Positions 5,635 through 34,801 of a stretch of DNA of 37,867 nt are shown piece by piece. The DNA lies in IMG/VR virus record IMGVR_UViG_3300020044_006136, positions 1 through 37,867 of that record. One strand, given 5' to 3'. Within the stretch, counting starts at the first letter, position 1. Each line of letters opens with the position of its first letter. The translations under genes were made by a program, and so were the position numbers. Under the pieces are notes generated by a model. That model saw only the letters and a list, made by a program, of their open reading frames with translations, did no database searches and was not told the origin of the DNA. The DNA is from a virus. Taxonomy: Duplodnaviria; Caudoviricetes.

Positions 5635-7611
5635 TTAAGATACAACAGCGAGTTTCCTTATGGCTCCAGTAGAGTCCCTGATTTCAACATATCCAGTAAT
5701 GGTTAAAGCAGTTGCTACGTGCGTTCCAAACATAATGTAAGCATTGGGGGCTACGTGAATATCTCGGTAGGCAATTCCTCCGGTCAACGCTTTAAGTTCA
5801 GCCCTACTATTGGTTGCGTCATATCTTAGTCCAACATATGTTTGGCCAGATGAAGCTCCATCAGCATCAAGAAATCCAACGCGAGTAGCGCCAGCCCCAG
5901 TGCTATAAATCGAATTAGACGCAGAAATTATCCCAACTGCCGTGTTTACATTCAAAGGGCCGGTTGAGCCAACGGCAAGGTTGCTATCTACCCAAAGATT
6001 TCCCGCGTCCTTTGTATACACCAATCCAGAGCTAAGGTTTCTGGCGACATTAACCAGACCATAAGTGTCAATAGTCATGCGCTCAACGCCGACTTTGCCA
6101 CTAACATCTGTGCTTAGATTAGTGTGCATCCTAATTTCAGATGCTGTTCCGGTTCCGGCTTGAAGTAGCAAATAACCACCCAAACCAGTGCCACCAAAGT
6201 TGTTTCCAACTAAGTCAATTTGCGCCCCATAATTTGCACCGTTGTCCGATGCTCCAGTGATGGTCAGAACCTGATTGTCTCCCGACTTCCTAATGCCAAT
6301 CGTGGAGTTAATCACCAAGGCATCTGTAAATACGGCACTAGTAATAGTTGGCGTGTTAATGCCTGATCCGATGATGGTGCCATTGCGAACGGTGACAGTG
6401 TTGAACTCCGCATCTCCGGTGCCGCGAATACGCCATCCAGATGATCCTGCCGTGAATCCAGAGGACTGAATCGTGCCAGAACCGGGAGTTAACCCATCTG
6501 AAATTGTCAGAGCTTGGCTGGTAATCGTTCCGGCGGTAATCTTTTCAGCAGCAACCTGCTGAATCAAAGCATTCTTGATATAGGTGGTTCCACCAACCAC
6601 TTGAAATGGAGCAATCTGACCAACGCCCGTCGAGTCAATGACTGCAAACTTATCCGCCTGAATTACAAACTCAGTTCCTTTTGTGACATACGCGACAGAG
6701 GCATTATATACTTCAGAGCCAGAACCTGATGGAAGCATATAGGTAAACGTAGTCGTATTTGATACCGTAATCAGATAGCTTCCGTTTGGATTTGTAGTTG
6801 CATAGCCAAGTGACGTAATGCTGATCAGGTCAGTAGAGGAATAGCCGTGCGCCGTCGATGTAACAATTGTTACCACATTTGTCGAGCGGGTTGCAGAACT
6901 TACCAGCTTTCCGGCATCTGCATTTGTCGCTCTGAATCCCATGATGCGCTGACTTGGGCCTGCACCCGTAGGCGTAACCATCAGCACATATTCATCCGCA
7001 ATGCTATCTACCCGCTTGTCGGGATATGGCACCCACGAAGACGTATCGTAGCGATAGAGGATGTTGTTGTCTGACGTGTTAATCCAAATGTCGCCATCAT
7101 TTGGTGCCGAAGGCGCAGTGCTAGACCTAGTGATCTTCTTGCCCAAATTATCCGTAATTGTGTTAGTTACCGGCCACGTTGCAACGGTAGCTGCCAGTGG
7201 ACCTACAATGCTTGAGAAGCGGCCATTCCTAGCCTCAACCTTAATCCAATAGTAACGCACTGAACCAGCTACAAGGTTGTTTCGGAAGAACGTCCGCTGC
7301 TCCTGTCCGACGTAGAACGACGGAGAAGACGGAAGTGAGCTTGTGGTGTTTTCGTAAATCCAAGTCTTTAGCGGCTGAGTATTTTGCGTCCAAGCCCAAC
7401 TCAGAATTACGGACTCCACGCCAGACGTATAGCTTAGGCTAGAGGGATCGTTAGGCGTAATGCCATCATCCGGCGCATAGCCATCAGAATTAAGGGCACC
7501 ATCCCAAACCGAATCATCAATGAGCTTGTTTAGGCGAATAGCCGTAGCCTTGCGACTAGCCCAGTCCTCATTCTTGTCCGTAAACGTGTAGCCTCGTTTG
7601 ATGATGCCCAT
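5635..7611 (-). CDS. Tail fibre/host-specificity protein with FN3-like and TipJ-like (DUF1983-like) segments
   Basis: YYWIKVEARNGRFS (FN3-like); FVIQADKFAV...PFQVVGGTTYIKNALIQ resembles the lambda gpJ C-terminal region. Confidence 0.6.
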   Translation of the reverse strand: MGIIKRGYTFTDKNEDWASRKATAIRLNKLIDDSVWDGALNSDGYAPDDGITPNDPSSLSYTSGVESVILSWAWTQNTQPLKTWIYENTTSSLPSSPSFYVGQEQRTFFRNNLVAGSVRYYWIKVEARNGRFSSIVGPLAATVATWPVTNTITDNLGKKITRSSTAPSAPNDGDIWINTSDNNILYRYDTSSWVPYPDKRVDSIADEYVLMVTPTGAGPSQRIMGFRATNADAGKLVSSATRSTNVVTIVTSTAHGYSSTDLISITSLGYATTNPNGSYLITVSNTTTFTYMLPSGSGSEVYNASVAYVTKGTEFVIQADKFAVIDSTGVGQIAPFQVVGGTTYIKNALIQQVAAEKITAGTITSQALTISDGLTPGSGTIQSSGFTAGSSGWRIRGTGDAEFNTVTVRNGTIIGSGINTPTITSAVFTDALVINSTIGIRKSGDNQVLTITGASDNGANYGAQIDLVGNNFGGTGLGGYLLLQAGTGTASEIRMHTNLSTDVSGKVGVERMTIDTYGLVNVARNLSSGLVYTKDAGNLWVDSNLAVGSTGPLNVNTAVGIISASNSIYSTGAGATRVGFLDADGASSGQTYVGLRYDATNSRAELKALTGGIAYRDIHVAPNAYIMFGTHVATALTITGYVEIRDSTGAIRKLAVVS

Positions 7612-7612
7612 G

Positions 7613-9592
7613 TTATTCAGCAGATGAGGTTGAGCCGTTCTGAACTGCGCCAGTGATTTTCACTGCCCTAATCTTGGGGCGTCCCTGCGTTGGTGCAACT
7701 GTAAACTGAGCACCATAGCCACGTTTGTTGCCAATACGGGCACGAATAGAGGCATCTTCAGCAGATGGGACAAACTTACCGAAAGCAGTTAGAACACTAC
7801 CCAGTGCTACGCTAGAATCGGGATTCTCAACCTCTACGGAAATATTAGCGTCAGATTGGAAGTTTGCTGCACTCTCAATGTGTAGCTCATACGAGTTGAA
7901 CCGCTTCCTATCCATCGTGGAATAGGTGTATTGCCGAGTGGTAAGAATGGAGTCAATGTTCAGTTGAGTGACAGTTCCGCCAGAAGACAACGAAAGGCAC
8001 ACATTATCAAAGTAGTCGTTTGCATTAACACCAGTCTCATCAATGACGTGAATGCCGCCCTCTTTGCTGACAGTGTGCAGGCGATTAACCGTTCCAGCAC
8101 CAGAGCGAACGAAACCAATGATATTCCACTGATTGCTGTTAATCACATCAAGCGACTCCCAGCCGTTGTTCAGCAGATTGAACACAATGACAGCATTGTT
8201 CACCGTAGACGCATCGAGAGGAACGGCGAGATAGTAGCGATTGTCGTGATAGACCCCAATGGAGTTGGCCGCATAGTTCTTGTTGATGCGGTCCATGATC
8301 GGGTTGATTGGCTCCGACATCGGCACAGATGCGCCGCGCAGATTGTATCTGTCCTCAAAGTTTACGCTATAAACGCCATTATCCGAGAGGAACAAGATTT
8401 GATTGCCGATCTGGACAATGGACTTACGGGCAACTGCACCAACTTCCCGCGTAACTTCTTGCACGCTGGAATTGTCCAAGTCTGCGCCAACGCCACGAAT
8501 CAAGTGAATGGAATTACGGGCAAAAACAACCAGCGCATCTTCTGCAAATGGCTGCAAGCCAACAATGAAATCGGAAGACCCAGAGGCAATCTTGAACTGG
8601 TTTTGAATCTGGTCGTAAGTGTTCTGGTCGAGGATGTCGGACGCAATTAGCTCATCACTGACATTGCGGGACGTAATCGTTGGCGTGCCAGACGTTCCAG
8701 CCATCGAGTAGTTGAACGGCATCCAAAGCCTACGCTGGTGATAGGTGGCCCAAGGCGGGGCTGGCATATGCGTGAATCCAAGCCCGATAGACTGACGCTT
8801 GCCCACGGTGATTCTTGCACCCGTAATGTCAGTTGCGTCTGCCTTGAAAGAGAAGCTGACGCCAGACGTTTTGGCATACACCCTATACTCAGTGAGCGGA
8901 TTGAGGTCGGTGTTTCCGGCATCACTAACCATTACCAAGTCGCCAACGAGAATTGCGTGTCCAGCTTCCGTCACCGTGACAACGCCATTAGAGATGGCTG
9001 TGTTGCCAGCCGTGTCGTAAACGAGTGGCTGCGTGTAGGCACCATTGCTCACCAAGGAAAACGCGGGGCTTCCCGTAAGACCACTGCCGTCCCACTGGAA
9101 AGCCACCTTGCCATCACGAAACACAAATAGGTAGTTAAACGCCTGAATGACATCACAAGTCGCGTCAACCGTCTGACCAGCCGGATAGGTGATAGTGTAA
9201 GAAACGCTCGTATTGCTAGTCTTTACAAGAACAGCCCGAGTGGCCGTTACCAGCACAATGTATTCAGTGTTGGCCGTTGACTGATCCGAGTAGAGACAAG
9301 TGCCGTAGATTGCGACCACAGCAGCATCGTTCAACGTAAGCGGAAGGACGGGCGGGGATGCGTCGTTTAGAACTAATGCCCCAGCCCCATTGGCGATGGC
9401 CGCAAACACGTTGCGATAGCCTTTACGGGTCTGCCACGAACCATCTACGTCCATGCGCCCATTCTGGCTTACGGCAACTTCCCCCGGCTTCAGTTGATCA
9501 GGACGAAGACGTTGATTGAGCACAGCAAAAGCTGTGTCTCCGTCATCAATTAGCTGGCTATCAAGCCGACCGAATGAGGCATACCTTGGCAT
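7613..9592 (-). CDS. Tail nozzle/stabilisation protein (P22 gp10 / T7 gp12-like)
   Basis: 659 aa beta-rich; GAVARKSIVQIGNQILFLSDNGVY motif; position in module. Confidence 0.65.
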   Translation of the reverse strand: MPRYASFGRLDSQLIDDGDTAFAVLNQRLRPDQLKPGEVAVSQNGRMDVDGSWQTRKGYRNVFAAIANGAGALVLNDASPPVLPLTLNDAAVVAIYGTCLYSDQSTANTEYIVLVTATRAVLVKTSNTSVSYTITYPAGQTVDATCDVIQAFNYLFVFRDGKVAFQWDGSGLTGSPAFSLVSNGAYTQPLVYDTAGNTAISNGVVTVTEAGHAILVGDLVMVSDAGNTDLNPLTEYRVYAKTSGVSFSFKADATDITGARITVGKRQSIGLGFTHMPAPPWATYHQRRLWMPFNYSMAGTSGTPTITSRNVSDELIASDILDQNTYDQIQNQFKIASGSSDFIVGLQPFAEDALVVFARNSIHLIRGVGADLDNSSVQEVTREVGAVARKSIVQIGNQILFLSDNGVYSVNFEDRYNLRGASVPMSEPINPIMDRINKNYAANSIGVYHDNRYYLAVPLDASTVNNAVIVFNLLNNGWESLDVINSNQWNIIGFVRSGAGTVNRLHTVSKEGGIHVIDETGVNANDYFDNVCLSLSSGGTVTQLNIDSILTTRQYTYSTMDRKRFNSYELHIESAANFQSDANISVEVENPDSSVALGSVLTAFGKFVPSAEDASIRARIGNKRGYGAQFTVAPTQGRPKIRAVKITGAVQNGSTSSAE

Positions 9593-9609
9593 ACGCCCAT
9601 TCTACACTA

Positions 9610-9753
9610 TCAGCGAACGGCTTTGCGTGCGTAATGAACCCCTTTAATCGTGCCCTTGTTCTCGGCTGCGTAAAATACTTGCTTGCCCTTTTTAGGGCCA
9701 TACTGAGCCTTCATGGCGGCAAAGACCGCTTTGCCCTTTTTAGTAAGGGGCAT
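9610..9753 (-). CDS. Small basic phage protein (47 aa, MPLTKKGKAVFAAMKAQYG...)
   Basis: Read manually; TAATG-coupled to the upstream ORF. Confidence 0.65.
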   Translation of the reverse strand: MPLTKKGKAVFAAMKAQYGPKKGKQVFYAAENKGTIKGVHYARKAVR

Positions 9754-9893
9754 TACTTGCAGGATTTACGGCTGCAACAGCCATTCATCTTGGCACCCTT
9801 GCCGTATTCCATCTCGCGCTCACGCTTGCCTTCGCCGCGCTCGTGCTTGATCATTTGCTTCTTGGACTTATACTTCTCGCTGGGTTTGCTCAT
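9753..9893 (-). CDS. Small basic phage protein (46 aa, MSKPSEKYKSKKQMIKHE...)
   Basis: Read manually; fills the gap and is translationally coupled. Confidence 0.6.
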   Translation of the reverse strand: MSKPSEKYKSKKQMIKHERGEGKREREMEYGKGAKMNGCCSRKSCK

Positions 9894-9902
9894 AGGACAA
9901 TT

Positions 9903-10400
9903 TTAGCACCCCCATGCGCGCCTACTCGGTGGGGACAATAAATACTCTGCCGCTGCCTTAAGTCTGTCTGAATTATCACCAAGAAGCCCGATGCCGCGAT
10001 TGCAGTGAGAGCATAGCAATCCCCTGACCTCACCAGTAACATGATCGTGGTCTATGCAAAATCTTCCGCTTCTCTTTGTTTTCGCCTGTTTATCGCCACA
10101 AATTGCACATCCGCCCCCTTGCACCTCAAGCATTTGATCGTATTTCTCAAGTGTAAGGCCATAACTCTTAAGAATCCCTATTGAACGTGTTTCCGGAGAA
10201 TACCTATCTCGTTGTTTTTTGAGACCAACACGACTCATGTAGTCTATTTGATAGCCCCTGCGCTTAAGTTGATAGCAAGCCTTGCATGACGCGCTGTGTC
10301 TGCCGCCTCGTTTTTTATTCCAATAATATTCTTCTTTTGGCAACGTGCGTTTGCAATCAACGCAATCATAGTTAATAATCTCTAAATCAGCTATTTGCAT
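9903..10400 (-). CDS. Endonuclease VII-family (His-Me finger) putative homing endonuclease
   Basis: CAICG...IDHDHVTGEVRGLLCSHCNRGIG motif, N-terminal CxxC pairs, AT-rich insertion. Confidence 0.85.
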   Translation of the reverse strand: MQIADLEIINYDCVDCKRTLPKEEYYWNKKRGGRHSASCKACYQLKRRGYQIDYMSRVGLKKQRDRYSPETRSIGILKSYGLTLEKYDQMLEVQGGGCAICGDKQAKTKRSGRFCIDHDHVTGEVRGLLCSHCNRGIGLLGDNSDRLKAAAEYLLSPPSRRAWGC

Positions 10401-26289: not shown

Positions 26290-27237
26290 ATGAGCCACGA
26301 AATTGAAATTAATGACACGGTAGTTTACGGCAGCAACACACCCGCATGGCATGGGCTGGGGACGGTCTTTGCTGGCCTTTTAAGCCCTTTGCGGGTCTTC
26401 GCCGAGGGAGTGGGGCACCGGGACATCCTAGAGGTGCCAGTGATGCTGAACGGCCTCACGCTCCCCGGCCAAAAGGGGTTGGTGGGGATCACATCCAAAG
26501 GCGTACAGGTGCCGCTTGCGGTGGTGGGTGACGGCTACGGATTGCTCAAAAGCGAATCCATGTATCGCATCCTTGAGGGCGTCTACGGCGGGCAGGCTGT
26601 TGTCGACGCTGCCGGGACTCTCCGCAACGGTGCCCGCGAGTGGTGCCTCGTTAAACGGTCGGCGTGGAATGTGAGCCGGGACGATAGCGTCATGACTTAT
26701 GACCTCTGGCTCAATCATCACGACGGCTCTGGCTGCTTCTCCCTTCACCGGACCAACATCCGCGTGGTGTGCGCCAACACTTGGAAGATGGCTGTTCAGG
26801 GCGGGAACCGCGTCTTTGGCGTGCGCCATACGAAGAACGTGGCGCAAGGTGTAGAAGCTGCCTTGCAAGTGCTGGGCTACGTCGAGAGTCAGGAGCAAGC
26901 GCAGCGTGCGGCGGCGCAGCGTATGGCCACGGCTTACATGAGCCGCGATGAGGCGTCCAAAGCATTCAATATCCTTCTTGGCATCCGCGACGGGGTGGAG
27001 GCGTCCACTCGCGCAGAAAATCAGGCGAAAGAGCTTAACCGCCTCTTTATGACTGGCGCAGGCAATCACGGCCTGACCCGCTGGGACGCCTTCAATGCGA
27101 TCACCGAATACGTCGATCACGGGCGGGCTACTCGTGTTGCGGATGGTCGCGATGGTGCCGAGGTGCGGTTTGAGTCGGTCCTCATGGGGTCTGGCGATGC
27201 TCTGAAGGCCAAAGCCTTCGACCTCCTGAGCGTCTAA
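26290..27237 (+). CDS. DUF932/DUF945-family phage/plasmid protein
   Basis: PAWHGLG, NHHDGS, IRVVCANT, RHTKN, TRWDAFNAITEYVDH motifs. Confidence 0.85.
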   Translation: MSHEIEINDTVVYGSNTPAWHGLGTVFAGLLSPLRVFAEGVGHRDILEVPVMLNGLTLPGQKGLVGITSKGVQVPLAVVGDGYGLLKSESMYRILEGVYGGQAVVDAAGTLRNGAREWCLVKRSAWNVSRDDSVMTYDLWLNHHDGSGCFSLHRTNIRVVCANTWKMAVQGGNRVFGVRHTKNVAQGVEAALQVLGYVESQEQAQRAAAQRMATAYMSRDEASKAFNILLGIRDGVEASTRAENQAKELNRLFMTGAGNHGLTRWDAFNAITEYVDHGRATRVADGRDGAEVRFESVLMGSGDALKAKAFDLLSV

Positions 27238-27255
27238 GCCCCTAATTAAGCACCC

Positions 27256-27288
27256 AAAGCCCTCTCCCTCACAGGAGGGGGCTTTTTT
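27256..27288 (+). terminator. Rho-independent terminator
   Basis: AAAGCCCTCTCC-CTCACA-GGAGGGGGCTTTTTT. Confidence 0.8.
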
Positions 27289-27351
27289 GTGATTAAAATG
27301 ATCAATAGAGGTGTTTTTACTGAGCAGTAAAACGGTAATTTATGGTAAAAT

Positions 27352-27564
27352 TTACGTCACGTCATCATTCCAAATAAGGACGGTGGTGGGGTTAATTCGG
27401 ATAACCGAGAACGGTCGCCGGGGAACCTCGGGGATCACTTCCTCGGGCACCACCATCACCGGCTGGTGAATGGTTTCCTCAATTGGGTGGCCAAACAGGT
27501 CCACGGGGGGCTTGCGGGAGGCGTTTCCTTGCGTTTTAAGGCGATTTGTCGGAGCGTTTGGCAT
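27352..27564 (-). CDS. Hypothetical protein (70 aa)
   Basis: Downstream of and overlapping the PEP-CTERM mini-gene. Confidence 0.4.
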   Translation of the reverse strand: MPNAPTNRLKTQGNASRKPPVDLFGHPIEETIHQPVMVVPEEVIPEVPRRPFSVIRINPTTVLIWNDDVT

Positions 27565-27724
27565 TTGGTGGCTGACGGGTGTCCTTAAAGCGTAGAATCG
27601 CCAGCAAAATCAAACAGAGGGCGAGGAAAGTGGCGCCATAGGTAGACGGCTCAGGGACAATGGGGTGCGGCGGGTGCTTACGCGACTCGTAAATGGTCCA
27701 CGCATCGTTTTCTCGCTGGTTCAT
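27536..27724 (-). CDS. Stand-alone PEP-CTERM mini-protein (62 aa)
   Basis: IVPEPSTYGATFLALCLILLAILRFK = PEP motif, TM helix and basic residues; ATG at 27724. Confidence 0.65.
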   Translation of the reverse strand: MNQRENDAWTIYESRKHPPHPIVPEPSTYGATFLALCLILLAILRFKDTRQPPNAKRSDKSP

Positions 27725-27792
27725 TCGTGGAGCAGGGCCAGAACAAGGGGCGACGTAAACGAAAAAGTTTTTCCCACTTGCGCGACCGCGTG

Positions 27793-27801
27793 TGTTATCA
27801 T
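27793..27801 (+). promoter_or_regulatory. Extended -10 promoter for the structured region
   Basis: TGTTATCAT (TGn plus TATCAT). Confidence 0.45.
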
Positions 27802-27815
27802 TCGTTCCTGTCAGT

Positions 27816-27916
27816 TGCGGGGTCAAGCCGCACAAAAAGTCTAACTTTGGGGACGCGCTCCTCAAGAAAGGGCCGAATGTGCTACTTGACCTAGCCTTCG
27901 GCCCTTTGCTTTTTCT
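27816..27916 (+). promoter_or_regulatory. Two-hairpin leader with complementary loops; the second hairpin is terminator-like
   Basis: Loop GGTCAAG (27821-27827) is complementary to loop CTTGACC (27885-27891); 11-bp stem followed by a U-rich tract. Confidence 0.6.
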
Positions 27917-27920
27917 TGGT

Positions 27921-28260
27921 TCTCGCGGGGTTGAAGTTCATAGGAACTAAGCGTGTAACCTACGGTATTCGCGAACGGCGAACCGATATTAGGTGAAGGT
28001 GCGGTCCCCGAGGCTAACAGGCGAGAGCCTGAATCGTAGGGGTATCAAAGTGACGCGAAAGCGTGATTCACCGGCAAACTACGAGAAGCAGTTTAGGGTA
28101 GGAGGCACAAGCCGCAACCCGAGGCCGGAAAAGCGAGACACGAAGACTGCTTCATGCGCTGCTTAACAATCCCTGATGGCAGGGATTACTGCGTCCACTC
28201 GCCTACTTCATGCGACGTGCTCAACGCATCCATCCGCAATGGATCGAAAAAACTGCTTAA
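27921..28260 (+). ncRNA. Candidate large structured ncRNA
   Basis: No ORF in the track; multiple nested stems, two GNRA tetraloops, possible pseudoknots. Confidence 0.5.
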
Positions 28261-28422
28261 TCACGAAGTGAAAACCACTAGAAACTCGGGCCAATGCGGG
28301 AAAGCTAATTGCCGCAAATCGCCTTAAGGGAGTGATTTACTGATGCCCCGAAAAAAGTTGAAGAAAAGAATTGATGCCCATAGGAAATTCTGAATGATAG
28401 CGGCAGATAGGGAAAACAAAAT

Positions 28423-28674
28423 ATGAATACAACACTAGAACAAATAAACATAGTTCCGAGCTACGAAAAAATTCAGGCTATGCCCGAACATCAAGCGAAG
28501 GCAGAACTCTATCGGATGCAGAGCATCGCAGGCAGTTTGGCCTACGAACTCTATCTGATCACAAAATACGGCCCACCGCCCACTCCTAAAACAGAAGTCA
28601 TTGACGACCTGTTTAAGCGTTACGCTAAGGCGTCAGAGACAACCGGAAACGTCTATTCCCCAGAAACCAAATGA
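28423..28674 (+). CDS. Hypothetical protein
   Basis: 83 aa; first gene of a coupled operon. Confidence 0.65.
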   Translation: MNTTLEQINIVPSYEKIQAMPEHQAKAELYRMQSIAGSLAYELYLITKYGPPPTPKTEVIDDLFKRYAKASETTGNVYSPETK

Positions 28675-31075: not shown

Positions 31076-31362
31076 TTGATGTATCGCTAACAATGCAGTC
31101 AGTCCGGTGGATGTTTGAGAAGCATCTCAAGAACATTGACCTATCAATTCCCGCCATCCCCATAAAGGAGACCAAGGACTATCTGCACCGCAAAAAGATT
31201 ACGGATGAAACAGTTTTTGCCATCCGAGCAGACGCCCAGCGTGGCATGAAAATCCGAGAATTGGCCGAGAAATATGCGGTCAGCCAAACCGTAGCCCACA
31301 AAATCAAGCACTATCAGCACCGTTTTTCCAAGGGCAAGTTTGCCCGGAATCCACAACAATGA
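31072..31362 (+). CDS. HTH DNA-binding protein
   Basis: IRELAEKYAVSQTVAHKI. Confidence 0.65.
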   Translation: MIDVSLTMQSVRWMFEKHLKNIDLSIPAIPIKETKDYLHRKKITDETVFAIRADAQRGMKIRELAEKYAVSQTVAHKIKHYQHRFSKGKFARNPQQ

Positions 31363-31901
31363 AAACATCAGACACACTAGGCAAAATCGCACCAGCTTTG
31401 CTGGCTGCACAAAAATCAGTGGGGAACGCCAAGAAGCAGGCGACCAACCCGCACTACAAATCCAAATACGCCAACCTTGAAGCCGTCATTGAGGCTGTTA
31501 AGGACGCCCTGAACGAGAACGGTATTTCCATCATCCAGACGGTGGGTGAAGTCGGTGCCGGGACCATCTGCGTAGGCACCCGCCTGCTGCACGAGAGCGG
31601 CGAGTTTATTGAGGACATGGCCTCTGCCCCGCTGTCGAAACAAGACGCGCAAGGCGTGGGTTCTGCCGTCACCTATCTGCGCCGTTATTCTCTCGCGGCT
31701 ATCTGCTCCATCACGCAGGAGGACGACGACGGCGAATCAGCAAAAGACCCACAGATTAGCAAGGCGCAACTCGTTGCCATCCAAACCAACGCAGAGAAAA
31801 ATGCGGACATGATCAAAAAAGCCTTGGACTACTTCAAGGTTTCTGATCTAACTAAGCTCAGTCAGGGCCAAGCAAACATCATCATCAACAAACTAAACTA
31901 A
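31359..31901 (+). CDS. erf: Erf-family single-strand annealing recombinase
   Basis: NPHYKSKYANL...GSAVTYLRRYSLAAICSITQEDDDG. Confidence 0.88.
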   Translation: MKTSDTLGKIAPALLAAQKSVGNAKKQATNPHYKSKYANLEAVIEAVKDALNENGISIIQTVGEVGAGTICVGTRLLHESGEFIEDMASAPLSKQDAQGVGSAVTYLRRYSLAAICSITQEDDDGESAKDPQISKAQLVAIQTNAEKNADMIKKALDYFKVSDLTKLSQGQANIIINKLN

Positions 31902-32537: not shown

Positions 32538-32740
32538 ACGGAAAGGGAGACAGTCCACGAAATTTAGGCCCGAAATATCGGGAAAACTACGATAGCATAT
32601 TCAGAAAAAACAACACACAAAATGAGTCACTGGTATACGAAAAACGGTCAAGCGATGCACAGGGTTCCCGGCAAGACAGTTGCGGAACGGGACACAACGA
32701 TTGCCGATGCAAGAAAGCTCGGCCTTCTTCCGTCAGTTAG
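32534..32740 (+). CDS. Small conserved phage protein (MNGKGDSPR...YDSIF)
   Basis: N-terminal motif; 3' end overlaps the next gene. Confidence 0.45.
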   Translation: MNGKGDSPRNLGPKYRENYDSIFRKNNTQNESLVYEKRSSDAQGSRQDSCGTGHNDCRCKKARPSSVS

Positions 32741-33467
32741 CGGTATTAACAAGGTCTGGGCCAATCCCGGCCTTGATCGCTGGAAGCAAAATGCCACCAT
32801 CGAGGCGGCACTAAACTACTCTCGCGCCGAGTTCTCCATTCCCGGCAAGGAGGAGGAGGATTCAATTGAGGCATATTACAGGGAGATTCGCGCCAAGGCT
32901 GACGCTGGCATGAATGCGGCCTCTGATCTGGGCGTCAAGATTCACGCAGCCATCGAAGCCAATCTCACGGATTCCCCTTGGGATGGCGGCGAGATGGTAG
33001 AGCTTGCAGACGGCAAGATGGTTGAGCTTTACGAGCTAGTTGATCCCGCCATAGACAAACTGGGTGAACTCATCATCACCCCGGTTGAGAGTGAGAAGAT
33101 TGTCACCTGTCTTCCCTATGGCTACGCAGGCCAAATGGATTTGGCTTTCACGCAGGGCGAGATTGCTGGCGTCCTCGATTTCAAGAGCACCAAGACAACT
33201 CCGGGAAAGAAGATTGACGTGCGGCAGGGCCAATCAATGCAGATTGCGGCCTACCACTACGCCTATTGGGGTGCTGCCGACAAGCCGCATTTCACGCCCA
33301 ATCACAAGGGAATCAACCTTTACATCAGCACTACGGAGATTGGCCGCGTTGATGTTGTCACCTACGACCACGAGGAACTTGCGAAGCAATGGGAAGGATT
33401 CCTTGCCTGCCTCACCCTCTGGCGTTTGCAGAACAACTATGATCCACGCTCAAAGGAGGTCGCATGA
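32622..33467 (+). CDS. PD-(D/E)XK exonuclease (RecB/Cas4-like)
   Basis: LPSVS, GVKIH, E...YAGQMD...LDFKS, QIAAY motifs. Confidence 0.85.
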   Translation: MSHWYTKNGQAMHRVPGKTVAERDTTIADARKLGLLPSVSGINKVWANPGLDRWKQNATIEAALNYSRAEFSIPGKEEEDSIEAYYREIRAKADAGMNAASDLGVKIHAAIEANLTDSPWDGGEMVELADGKMVELYELVDPAIDKLGELIITPVESEKIVTCLPYGYAGQMDLAFTQGEIAGVLDFKSTKTTPGKKIDVRQGQSMQIAAYHYAYWGAADKPHFTPNHKGINLYISTTEIGRVDVVTYDHEELAKQWEGFLACLTLWRLQNNYDPRSKEVA

Positions 33468-34801
33468 AGGACCGCGAACTCCCTCGCTCCGAGCAAGCCG
33501 AGTGCAACGTCATCAGTTGCGTTCTCCTAGACGGCGCAGCCGCTCTAGTCACTGCACTGGACGCCAAAATCACGGAGGAATGTTTCTATGAACCCAAGAA
33601 CGCCAAGCTCTGGCGGGCAATTATCTGGAATCACAATCATGGCAGACCAATTGAAACGGCAATCATCATCGATGAACTCCGCAAAGTCGATAAACTCGAC
33701 TCAATCGGCGTTGACCACATCATCAGTGTTTCCGGTAGTATCCCCACTACGGCTGGTTTTACCCACTGGCTTGAGCAGGTCAGGGAAACATACGTCCTGC
33801 GCGAACTCATCAAGTGTGCGAACGAAGTCCGAGAGTGTGCTTACGGCTACAAGGGCAACGTGGAAGACTTCGTGGCGGCTACATCCCGCATACTATCCAT
33901 CCGTCATGCCAGCCAAAAGCAGGAGACGCTCTCTTCAGCAGCTACGGACGTATTTAGCCTCTGCCAGCGCATCCTTGCTGGCGAGGACACGGAGACTGAT
34001 CGAGGTCTGTCTTTCCCTTGGCCGGACTGGAATCAGCGATTCGGCCAAGCGCAGCCGGGAGAACTGATTGTCGTAGCCGCACGCCCCGGTAGAGGCAAAT
34101 CTAGCGCAGGAAGGCAGATTGCGTGGCACTGGAGCCAGAATGTCGGAGATGTGCTCTTATTCTCAAGGGAAATGCCCGTCTGTGGCCTTCCGCAGTTGTT
34201 TGCCCAAAGCCTAAGCGGGAAGAGCTGGCGTGAGTTTCGTCGCAATGAACTCACCTCCGCTCATTCCGATGCGTTTCTTGAGTCCATTAAGGACGTGCAA
34301 AATAACAAGAGACTGCACATCTACGACCGCGACCGGACGCTGGCTCAGGTCACTGCTCGCATCAAAGCATTCCACCAAATCAAGCCCATCAAGGGCATCG
34401 TCATTGACTACCTCCAGCGTTACGATCCACAGCAAGAACGCGGAGAAACACGCGACGTAGCCATTGGGCGCATGACTATGGCCCTGAAGGATGCGGCTAT
34501 TGAATGCGGCATCCCGGTCATCCTGCTGGCGCAGCTATCCCGTGGAGTTGAACGCGACAATCGTGAGCCTATGCTTAGTGACTTGCGCGAGTCTGGAAAT
34601 ATCGAGCAAGACGCCGACCGTGTTATTTTCCTTGACGCTCCGATGAACACCCCGGATGGTGCAACTCAGGACTTGAACGACGGAACAGTGCGCCGAATCT
34701 TCGTCAATGCCATCCAAGCCAAGGGGCGCGGAGAGGGGCAGGATAGAATCGGCATGATGTTCAATCGTCCAATCACTACGTTTGAGTCTATCGTTCCTTA
34801 A
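33464..34801 (+). CDS. dnaB: DnaB-like replicative helicase
   Basis: AARPGRGKS, IVIDYLQ, LAQLSR, LSDLRESGNIEQDAD motifs. Confidence 0.93.
   Translation: MKDRELPRSEQAECNVISCVLLDGAAALVTALDAKITEECFYEPKNAKLWRAIIWNHNHGRPIETAIIIDELRKVDKLDSIGVDHIISVSGSIPTTAGFTHWLEQVRETYVLRELIKCANEVRECAYGYKGNVEDFVAATSRILSIRHASQKQETLSSAATDVFSLCQRILAGEDTETDRGLSFPWPDWNQRFGQAQPGELIVVAARPGRGKSSAGRQIAWHWSQNVGDVLLFSREMPVCGLPQLFAQSLSGKSWREFRRNELTSAHSDAFLESIKDVQNNKRLHIYDRDRTLAQVTARIKAFHQIKPIKGIVIDYLQRYDPQQERGETRDVAIGRMTMALKDAAIECGIPVILLAQLSRGVERDNREPMLSDLRESGNIEQDADRVIFLDAPMNTPDGATQDLNDGTVRRIFVNAIQAKGRGEGQDRIGMMFNRPITTFESIVP

Follow-up and report, generated by a model that had tools for sequence, protein, structure and literature searches.

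How does a tailed phage that encodes its own helicase begin to replicate its DNA when its genome holds no recognizable initiator gene? The question is raised by a complete virus record of 37,867 bases with direct terminal repeats (the whole stretch analyzed here, hereafter called the window), whose genes include those for a major capsid protein, terminase, a DUF932 protein, an ERF annealing protein, an exonuclease and a DnaB-like helicase. The original prediction held that this genome lacks a recognizable initiator or primase, and this is borne out by family searches of its ORFs, wherein initiator, primase and polymerase families were absent from 51 window ORFs (Pfam and PHROGs) and from 24 ORFs (NCBIfam), and by six-frame searches of the window, which likewise revealed no initiator family. 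An initiator of an unrecognized type may be present among the many uncharacterized ORFs of the window, and the ERF protein and exonuclease may allow recombination-driven replication. The closest cultured relatives of the helicase are approximately 30% identical to it, and the window DNA matches cultured phages and plasmids at chance level only. None of the 63 stretches recovered in a scan based on the DnaB alignment was a bacterial-genome locus, and the sequencing runs that contain the stretch are labeled freshwater, lake or wetland. An Endonuclease VII gene (9903-10400) is located amid the structural region, where it adjoins a lone + strand ORF (window 9574-10400).

Between the DUF932 gene and the early genes is a gene-free stretch that had been proposed to form a large structured RNA. 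The boundaries of this element were established by comparison with relatives. Specifically, L001 and L036 match the window at nucleotides 27478-27913 and 28223-28430 but not between these segments, and the same is true for L041. The intervening element, which we call cassette A, thus occupies a slot whose contents can be exchanged. All 15 sequence motifs quoted in the original prediction are located where it had placed them. The stretch is also ORF-free as claimed, wherein only short frames of 57 aa or fewer are present and no reading frame is conserved; the 57-aa frame at 27993-28166 is broken in register by indels in the aligned homologs. ARAGORN detected 0 tRNA or tmRNA genes in the window.

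Table 1. Features of the slot and of the neighboring replication genes, in window coordinates
Feature	Position	Strand	Basis or remark
DUF932 gene, upstream of slot	26290..27237	+	Pfam, E 3.4e-39
Extended -10 promoter-like site (TGn-TAnnnT)	27793..27801	+	same pattern by eye at 14 loci
Leader hairpin, predicted antiterminator	27816..27834	+	variable loop and 3' arm complementary to terminator tip
Terminator-like hairpin with bulges, then T-run	27867..27918	+	arms 27867-27877/27897-27907
Cassette A, swappable structured element	27914..28222	+	bounds from comparison with L001/L036 and L041
Interrupted hairpin	27959..27993	+	27959-62/27990-93, 27963-65/27983-85, 27969-72/27978-81
Stem 28006-09/28039-42	28006..28042	+	encloses invariant internal loop and hairpin 28019-28030
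Bulged hairpin with invariant GAAA tetraloop cap	28050..28071	+	covariation
Three-way junction	28072..28127	+	28072-75/28124-27, 28077-79/28091-93, 28096-99/28117-20
3' hairpin, C-rich 5' arm and G-rich 3' arm	28168..28187	+	kept in 7/7 sequences
Shared 3' flank	28223..28430	+	common to L001 and L041; from 28304 also in the initiator-bearing record
Second promoter-like site, before early genes	near 28371-28398	+	by eye
ERF annealing protein	31359-31901	+	Pfam and PHROG matches
Exonuclease	32622-33467	+	Pfam and PHROG matches
DnaB-like helicase	33464-34801	+	Pfam and PHROG matches

A comparison with shuffled controls had been suggested as a check on the predicted structure. The folding energy is marginally better than that of the shuffles (z -1.87, with 5 of 100 equally good), but is equal on both strands (z -1.83 for the opposite strand). 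Because of this marginal energy, the case for structure rests on relatives, and the evidence for a structured cassette A is covariation rather than energy. Homologs were gathered by DUF932 and DnaB searches. Six related phage records carry cassette A, five at 84-94% and one (L047) at 77%, and metagenome matches added near-identical copies. A 38-pair fold of nucleotides 27945-28135, which was drawn from the same small, related set of seven distinct sequences on which it was scored, is paired in 99.2% of 266 cells and exhibits two-sided changes at 16 of its 38 pairs, eight of which derive from L047 alone, versus at most two in slid controls. Most of its helices are recovered by RNAalifold, unaided. 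Therefore, the proposal of a conserved structured element comes through the covariation check, and we regard cassette A as a real, uncatalogued structured RNA candidate whose fold differs from that first drawn. The possibility that these are chance hairpins in a conserved spacer might be entertained given the low folding score on both strands and the small number of sequences. We consider it very improbable, since the two-sided changes far exceed those in slid controls and the unpaired runs of cassette A are more conserved than its stems.

The covariation is distributed over the revised fold. Two-sided changes are present at four of the 11 pairs in the interrupted hairpin, and in contig X1, which is outside the alignment and is probably DNA, both arms of its basal stem are changed with pairing apparently kept by our reading. 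The stem that follows has two such changes, both from L047, and its inner hairpin stem is invariant. In the bulged hairpin, all four pairs below the loop change on both sides and the GAAA sequence is kept in 7/7 sequences; the ACGC-GAAA-GCGT helix of the original prediction (28053-28064) is part of this structure and is retained. The three helices of the three-way junction, in the order listed in Table 1, have one, three and two two-sided pairs, and the junction holds two long, nearly invariant loops. Two candidate pseudoknots (28035-38/28080-83 and 28000-04/28112-16) are invariant in all sequences and hence give no covariation signal. The predicted AATCCCTG hairpin at the 3' end is also preserved, wherein L047 differs in loop and register and is one alignment column off.

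Other pairings that had been drawn fared less well. That earlier set is paired in 86.8% of cells and has five two-sided pairs among the seven distinct sequences, all of which are within two helices common to both folds, ACGC/GCGT (28053-28064) and CCGGC/GCCGG. The proposed CCGGC/GCCGG pairing (28071/28124) does covary, but it is nested rather than a crossing pseudoknot because the 10-bp stem that it would have crossed (28085/28144) has been dropped; this stem is paired in 71.4% of cells without two-sided change. Similarly, the pairing of CCTACG..ATTC with GAAT-CGTAGG (84.3% paired) and the CGGGG/CCCCG pseudoknot (68.6% paired in homologs) exhibit no two-sided change. The AGTTC/GAACT motif is present, but two of its five pairs are broken in the most distant homolog. 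A switch had also been suggested, in which nucleotides 28250-28258 serve as an alternative pairing partner. This switch is unsupported because the partner is missing from 6/6 cassette A homologs and its sequence occurs in two relatives without the cassette. The only switch with comparative support is at 27821-27907, upstream of the stretch originally described.

A search of the window with the Rfam 15 families returned 0 matches at the gathering score, and none of the six weak matches at E<=10 within 27200-28450 is inside cassette A. The likeness to ARRPOF (RF02933) that had been suggested is not upheld, as its covariance model gave no match on the genome at E<=10, and no family match was obtained for GOLLD, ROOL, HEARO, GEBRO, PAGEV, int-alpA, C4-type or other Rfam 15 families. 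The ribozyme option likewise finds no match to any catalogued ribozyme or intron. A possible resemblance to domain I of group II introns was rejected: RF02005 and RF02001 gave no match at E<=10, and the cassette A model scored at noise level on 22 intron loci (best 10.7 bits). Nor does 27200-28450 contain a match to the catalytic domain V of group II introns at E<=10. Pattern scans yielded true cassette A homologs among 6/6, 6/28, 9/14, 6/45, 6/55 and 0/3 matches, all from one phage group, and the covariance model added no member from 68 sources, 49 records or 91 pattern matches. The best new score (17 bits, L250/L253) is regarded as chance because these loci were pre-selected by pattern. Four supplementary files of PMC10690425, which hold candidate phage RNAs, contain no match to the cassette A motif, and our literature searches found no description of cassette A or of an RNA that replaces a phage initiator.

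Contigs X2-X6, from RNA libraries of five studies, cover parts of 27935-28136, and X3 and X4 extend over further genes of the phage. Two contigs in RNA libraries bridge the leader, terminator and cassette A, where DNA carry-over is possible. These observations are weak evidence of expression because the runs (six of 12 listed, all examined as contigs) were chosen for holding this stretch, and contigs carry no information on strand, ends or level. X3 and X6 begin at one place, 17-21 nt past the -10 site; we do not read this as a transcription start, because the position lies within the variable loop of the leader, a likely site for an assembly break. The coverage by RNA libraries could fit a free noncoding RNA or ribozyme, such as a GOLLD/ROOL-type passenger, a sponge or a relic of group II domain I, that moves as cargo at a recombination hot spot. 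Long invariant unpaired runs suggest tertiary structure, and some short motifs look group II-like. We judge this explanation improbable given the absence of an Rfam family match or domain V and the noise-level scores on intron loci, and because it leaves unexplained the mutual exclusion of cassette and initiator gene described below.

The slot is rarely empty because other gene-free cassettes fill it in relatives. In L001 and L041, a different cassette of approximately 400 nt resides between the shared flanks, which extend to approximately 27913 and resume at 28223. The scan with the DnaB alignment gave 71 loci, and profiles assign cassette B to 26 records (six of which built the profile, with L122 a loose member), cassette C to six and cassette D to two. 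Cassette B (for example, L001:3790-4170 and L154:6930-7250) has two well-kept hairpins and covaries at 10 of 24 pairs, with one-sided G-U changes as well; it offers a better-sampled target for covariation analysis than cassette A. Cassette C (L007:7105-7450, L008, L114-L119) has a conserved 5' motif block and 3' end with a variable middle, and folds no better than shuffles (z +0.8). Cassettes D (L157:4180-4510, L158:5770-6106) and E (L160:8240-8500) occur in the same promoter-leader-terminator setting, and cassette E, by eye, ends with a C-rich/G-rich hairpin that has a long G-run. Rfam gave no match for cassettes B and C, for 10 related loci other than a single tRNA, or for four further loci; one relative carries a tRNA gene at L114:13564-13635. 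The distance from promoter to cassette end is approximately 420-450 nt.

The strongest clue to the function of cassette A comes from G012, a phage record in which the slot holds protein-coding genes. The G012 DnaB is 89% identical to that of the window and is sister to the DnaB of a cassette A phage (99/97 in a 29-row tree), although recombination could blur this placement because the tree represents one gene. G012 keeps the promoter (86% over 36 nt versus L001) and the 3' flank at 28304-28413, and profiles for cassettes A-D find none of them in its slot. Instead, the slot carries a 175-aa HTH_36 gene (E 1.9e-14) followed by an HNH gene. The best PHROG for the 175-aa protein is "replication initiation protein" (E 1.5e-16), and short iteron-like repeats are present inside its gene. 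Internal iterons are a characteristic of lambda O-type initiator genes, and the G012 slot content resembles this arrangement, whereas an O-type gene is absent from the window. Indeed, cassette and O-like initiator are mutually exclusive among 17 records, wherein the O-like profile phrog_391 detects G012 only and the other 16 carry a cassette. In a smaller six-frame set, O-like profiles exceeded the cut-off in one of five records, again G012. HTH_36 was detected in 0 of 50 other records, many of which are fragments, and neither PF09681, a second initiator family, nor the primase domain PF08275 was found in any of the 17. The HTH_36 score of G013, 13.5 bits in an 85-aa frame, falls below the cut-off, and this record is not taken to bear an initiator.

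The exchange of protein for RNA is a single event in one genome, because a search with the G012 initiator retrieved only itself (1/44 stretches). The G012 gene may simply be a mobile cassette that inserted into the slot, since it is short, has an HNH neighbor and has a function taken from profile names. CheckV scores the G012 record as 53% complete despite its terminal repeats.

In our preferred reading, cassette A, which takes the place of an initiator-like gene present in one sister phage, is likely to be transcribed and to act as an RNA-based starter of replication similar to ColE1 RNA II, with a probability of about 0.5. An origin role in some form has a somewhat better than even chance. 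Thus, the origin function that had been proposed gains from the O-like initiator gene found in the same slot, although the homology to RNA I or RNA II that a family relationship would entail is lacking.

The sequences preceding cassette A suggest how such a transcript could be controlled. The 14 loci with a -10 pattern in the matching place include the initiator-bearing locus, and the site in the window would direct a transcription start near 27808. Neither this site (27793..27801) nor the terminator-like hairpin (27867..27918) was reported by the promoter and terminator scans. The window has a TTG only 12 nt upstream of the -10 hexamer, and among clade promoters (window 27778-27801; L108:6669-6691; L157:4036-4056) the spacing of the TTG is 10-12 nt for some members and 15-19 nt for the rest, a difference that may hint at host group. 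The terminator-like hairpin is common to relatives that carry a different cassette, and its tip is linked to the leader by an inverted repeat (27821-27834/27878-27891). The segment 27808-27915 folds at z -3.0. When 15 leaders, two with an identical tip, were paired with all tips, each leader's own tip ranked first in 14 of 15 relatives and third in L007, and the mean duplex energy was -20.4 kcal/mol for a genome's own pair versus -11.6 kcal/mol across genomes. Four leaders that have no clear leader-tip helix (L153, L136, L141 and L060) were left out of this comparison. The leader and hairpin loops change fast among relatives and yet stay complementary, as is expected for a terminator-antiterminator pair, and we consider this predicted leader switch to be clearly regulatory in type.

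Related arrangements are known from phage P4, where CI RNA with seqA-seqC controls termination ahead of replication genes, and from IsrK (PMC4825925). The present leader is likewise close to its promoter and can pair with a hairpin further downstream, ahead of putative replication functions, but the likeness is limited to 27816-27918 rather than the large cassette, and there is no Rfam match. Given this regulatory switch, and with a promoter and terminator preceding it and the early genes following on the same strand, cassette A might itself be a cis-regulatory leader, an antiterminator or attenuator for the early operon (ERF, exonuclease, DnaB) that has no priming role. We find this unlikely. 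In every slot type a second promoter-like site, seen by eye, immediately precedes the first early gene, the G012 slot holds an initiator-like gene, and several unrelated folds of 300-400 nt would exceed the usual needs of a leader.

An RNA starter of replication has precedent among plasmids. ColE1 RNA II/RNA I constitutes a Rep-less replicon with an origin-proximal folded transcript and loop-based control, and control through loops is described more generally for RNA replicons (PMC3035462). Cassette A resembles this system in the lack of a Rep protein, in a folded putative primer of some hundreds of bases and in variable control loops. It differs in that the complementary elements are on one strand, and in its residence in a tailed phage that has its own DnaB. 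The MRB replicons of Vibrionaceae comprise a Rep-less region of approximately 500 bp with an RNA II of at least 465 nt, wherein a conserved short terminator element adjoins a poorly conserved long RNA (PMC3035462). The slot similarly has a putative long RNA in a Rep-less region, with a promoter-to-cassette-end distance (approximately 420-450 nt) close to the length of MRB RNA II, and a conserved terminator element beside this variable candidate RNA, but MRB RNA I is transcribed off the opposite strand, there is no sequence match and the element type is different. No Rep or initiator protein was found among the 51 ORFs or by six-frame search, as would be expected of such a replicon, whereas RNA I/RNA II homology is absent from Rfam searches and from the plasmid collection, where the best match to cassette A is 31 nt (E 3). 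Cassette A may therefore work like ColE1 or MRB RNA II without being a member of either family.

In the mechanism we envisage, host RNA polymerase would start near 27808 and would usually terminate at the hairpin that ends at 27907, with leader-tip pairing, which is evident by comparison, permitting read-through. The read-through RNA would fold into the covarying multi-junction shape predicted from homologs. By analogy with ColE1 RNA II only, this shape could keep the 3' part of the RNA on its template, forming an R-loop near 28140-28260. The RNA end might then prime DNA synthesis by a host polymerase, and the displaced strand could provide for loading of the phage DnaB. Control specificity would be particular to each phage, set by the fast-changing loops of the leader and the hairpin.

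Transcription-primed (R-loop) origins exist in phage T4, in which opening of the origin by a phage transcript is followed by loading of the phage helicase. These origins consist of a promoter and an unwinding element and are not known to involve a large folded RNA, in contrast to the slot described here, and T4 has polymerase, primase and loader genes of its own.

Cassette A could alternatively act as single-stranded DNA, such as a primosome or helicase-loading signal that is exposed by transcription. The slot argument fits this explanation equally well, and covariation is blind to the difference between RNA and ssDNA, a point made for the ARRPOF, GEBRO and PAGEV motifs (PMC5737381). These structured plasmid motifs of 223-349 nt are tied to replication regions (PMC5737381) and resemble cassette A in size and in its proposed link to replication, but they belong to plasmids. 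Several features point to RNA: the GAAA loop that stays invariant above a stem in which every pair covaries, the one-sided G-U changes in cassette B, the promoter with read-through control and the strand bias of tetraloops. Over nine cassettes, 12 GNRA- or UUCG-capped hairpins are present on the + strand versus four on the - strand, an excess that is not significant in cassette A alone (P about 0.1). We therefore consider an ssDNA signal to be quite improbable. The GC skew curve has no turning point at the slot. A minus-strand TGnTAnnnT site is present in 5/5 cassette A sequences, but it is inside the invariant core and is not in other cassettes, and the search of the cassettes for minus-strand promoter sites demonstrated no antisense equivalent of RNA I.

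As RNA-initiated replicons, a 2010 report mentions no others than the ColE1 and MRB plasmids (PMC3035462). If cassette A is an RNA starter of replication, this class would extend from two plasmid families to tailed phages that have their own DnaB. Many phage genomes encode a helicase and no visible initiator, and an exchange of RNA for protein would offer both an explanation and a direct test, since the natural swap compares phages whose helicases are 89-93% identical. Several uncatalogued RNA folds would also acquire a function, possibly as new compact origins. More tentatively, and at somewhat less than even odds, this clade of lake phages may replicate by using at least four interchangeable large folded RNAs or an O-like protein, placed behind a shared attenuating leader whose rapidly changing loops set the specificity of replication. 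Should the origin reading fail, there would remain a structured RNA family new to the catalogs, with a leader switch whose parts co-evolve.

Some smaller observations concern the surroundings of the slot. In G013 (L108:4567-5487, 6077-6433), an ArdC-like gene replaces DUF932 upstream, and a small SLT-domain gene comes next; a small gene similar to that of G013 is also present in L007 and L008, at a place where the window lacks one. By eye, the 3' ends of cassettes A, B and C seem to share a hairpin whose 3' arm is G-rich, with a short similar motif after it (window 28168-28200; L154:7157-7185; L007:7390-7420), which is a candidate hybridization or priming site. The motif just 3' of the cassette (window 28240-28285) occurs once in the window, and G012 and G016 have the same motif elsewhere in their genomes, apart from the slot (L064:1501-1546; L065:1501-1541).
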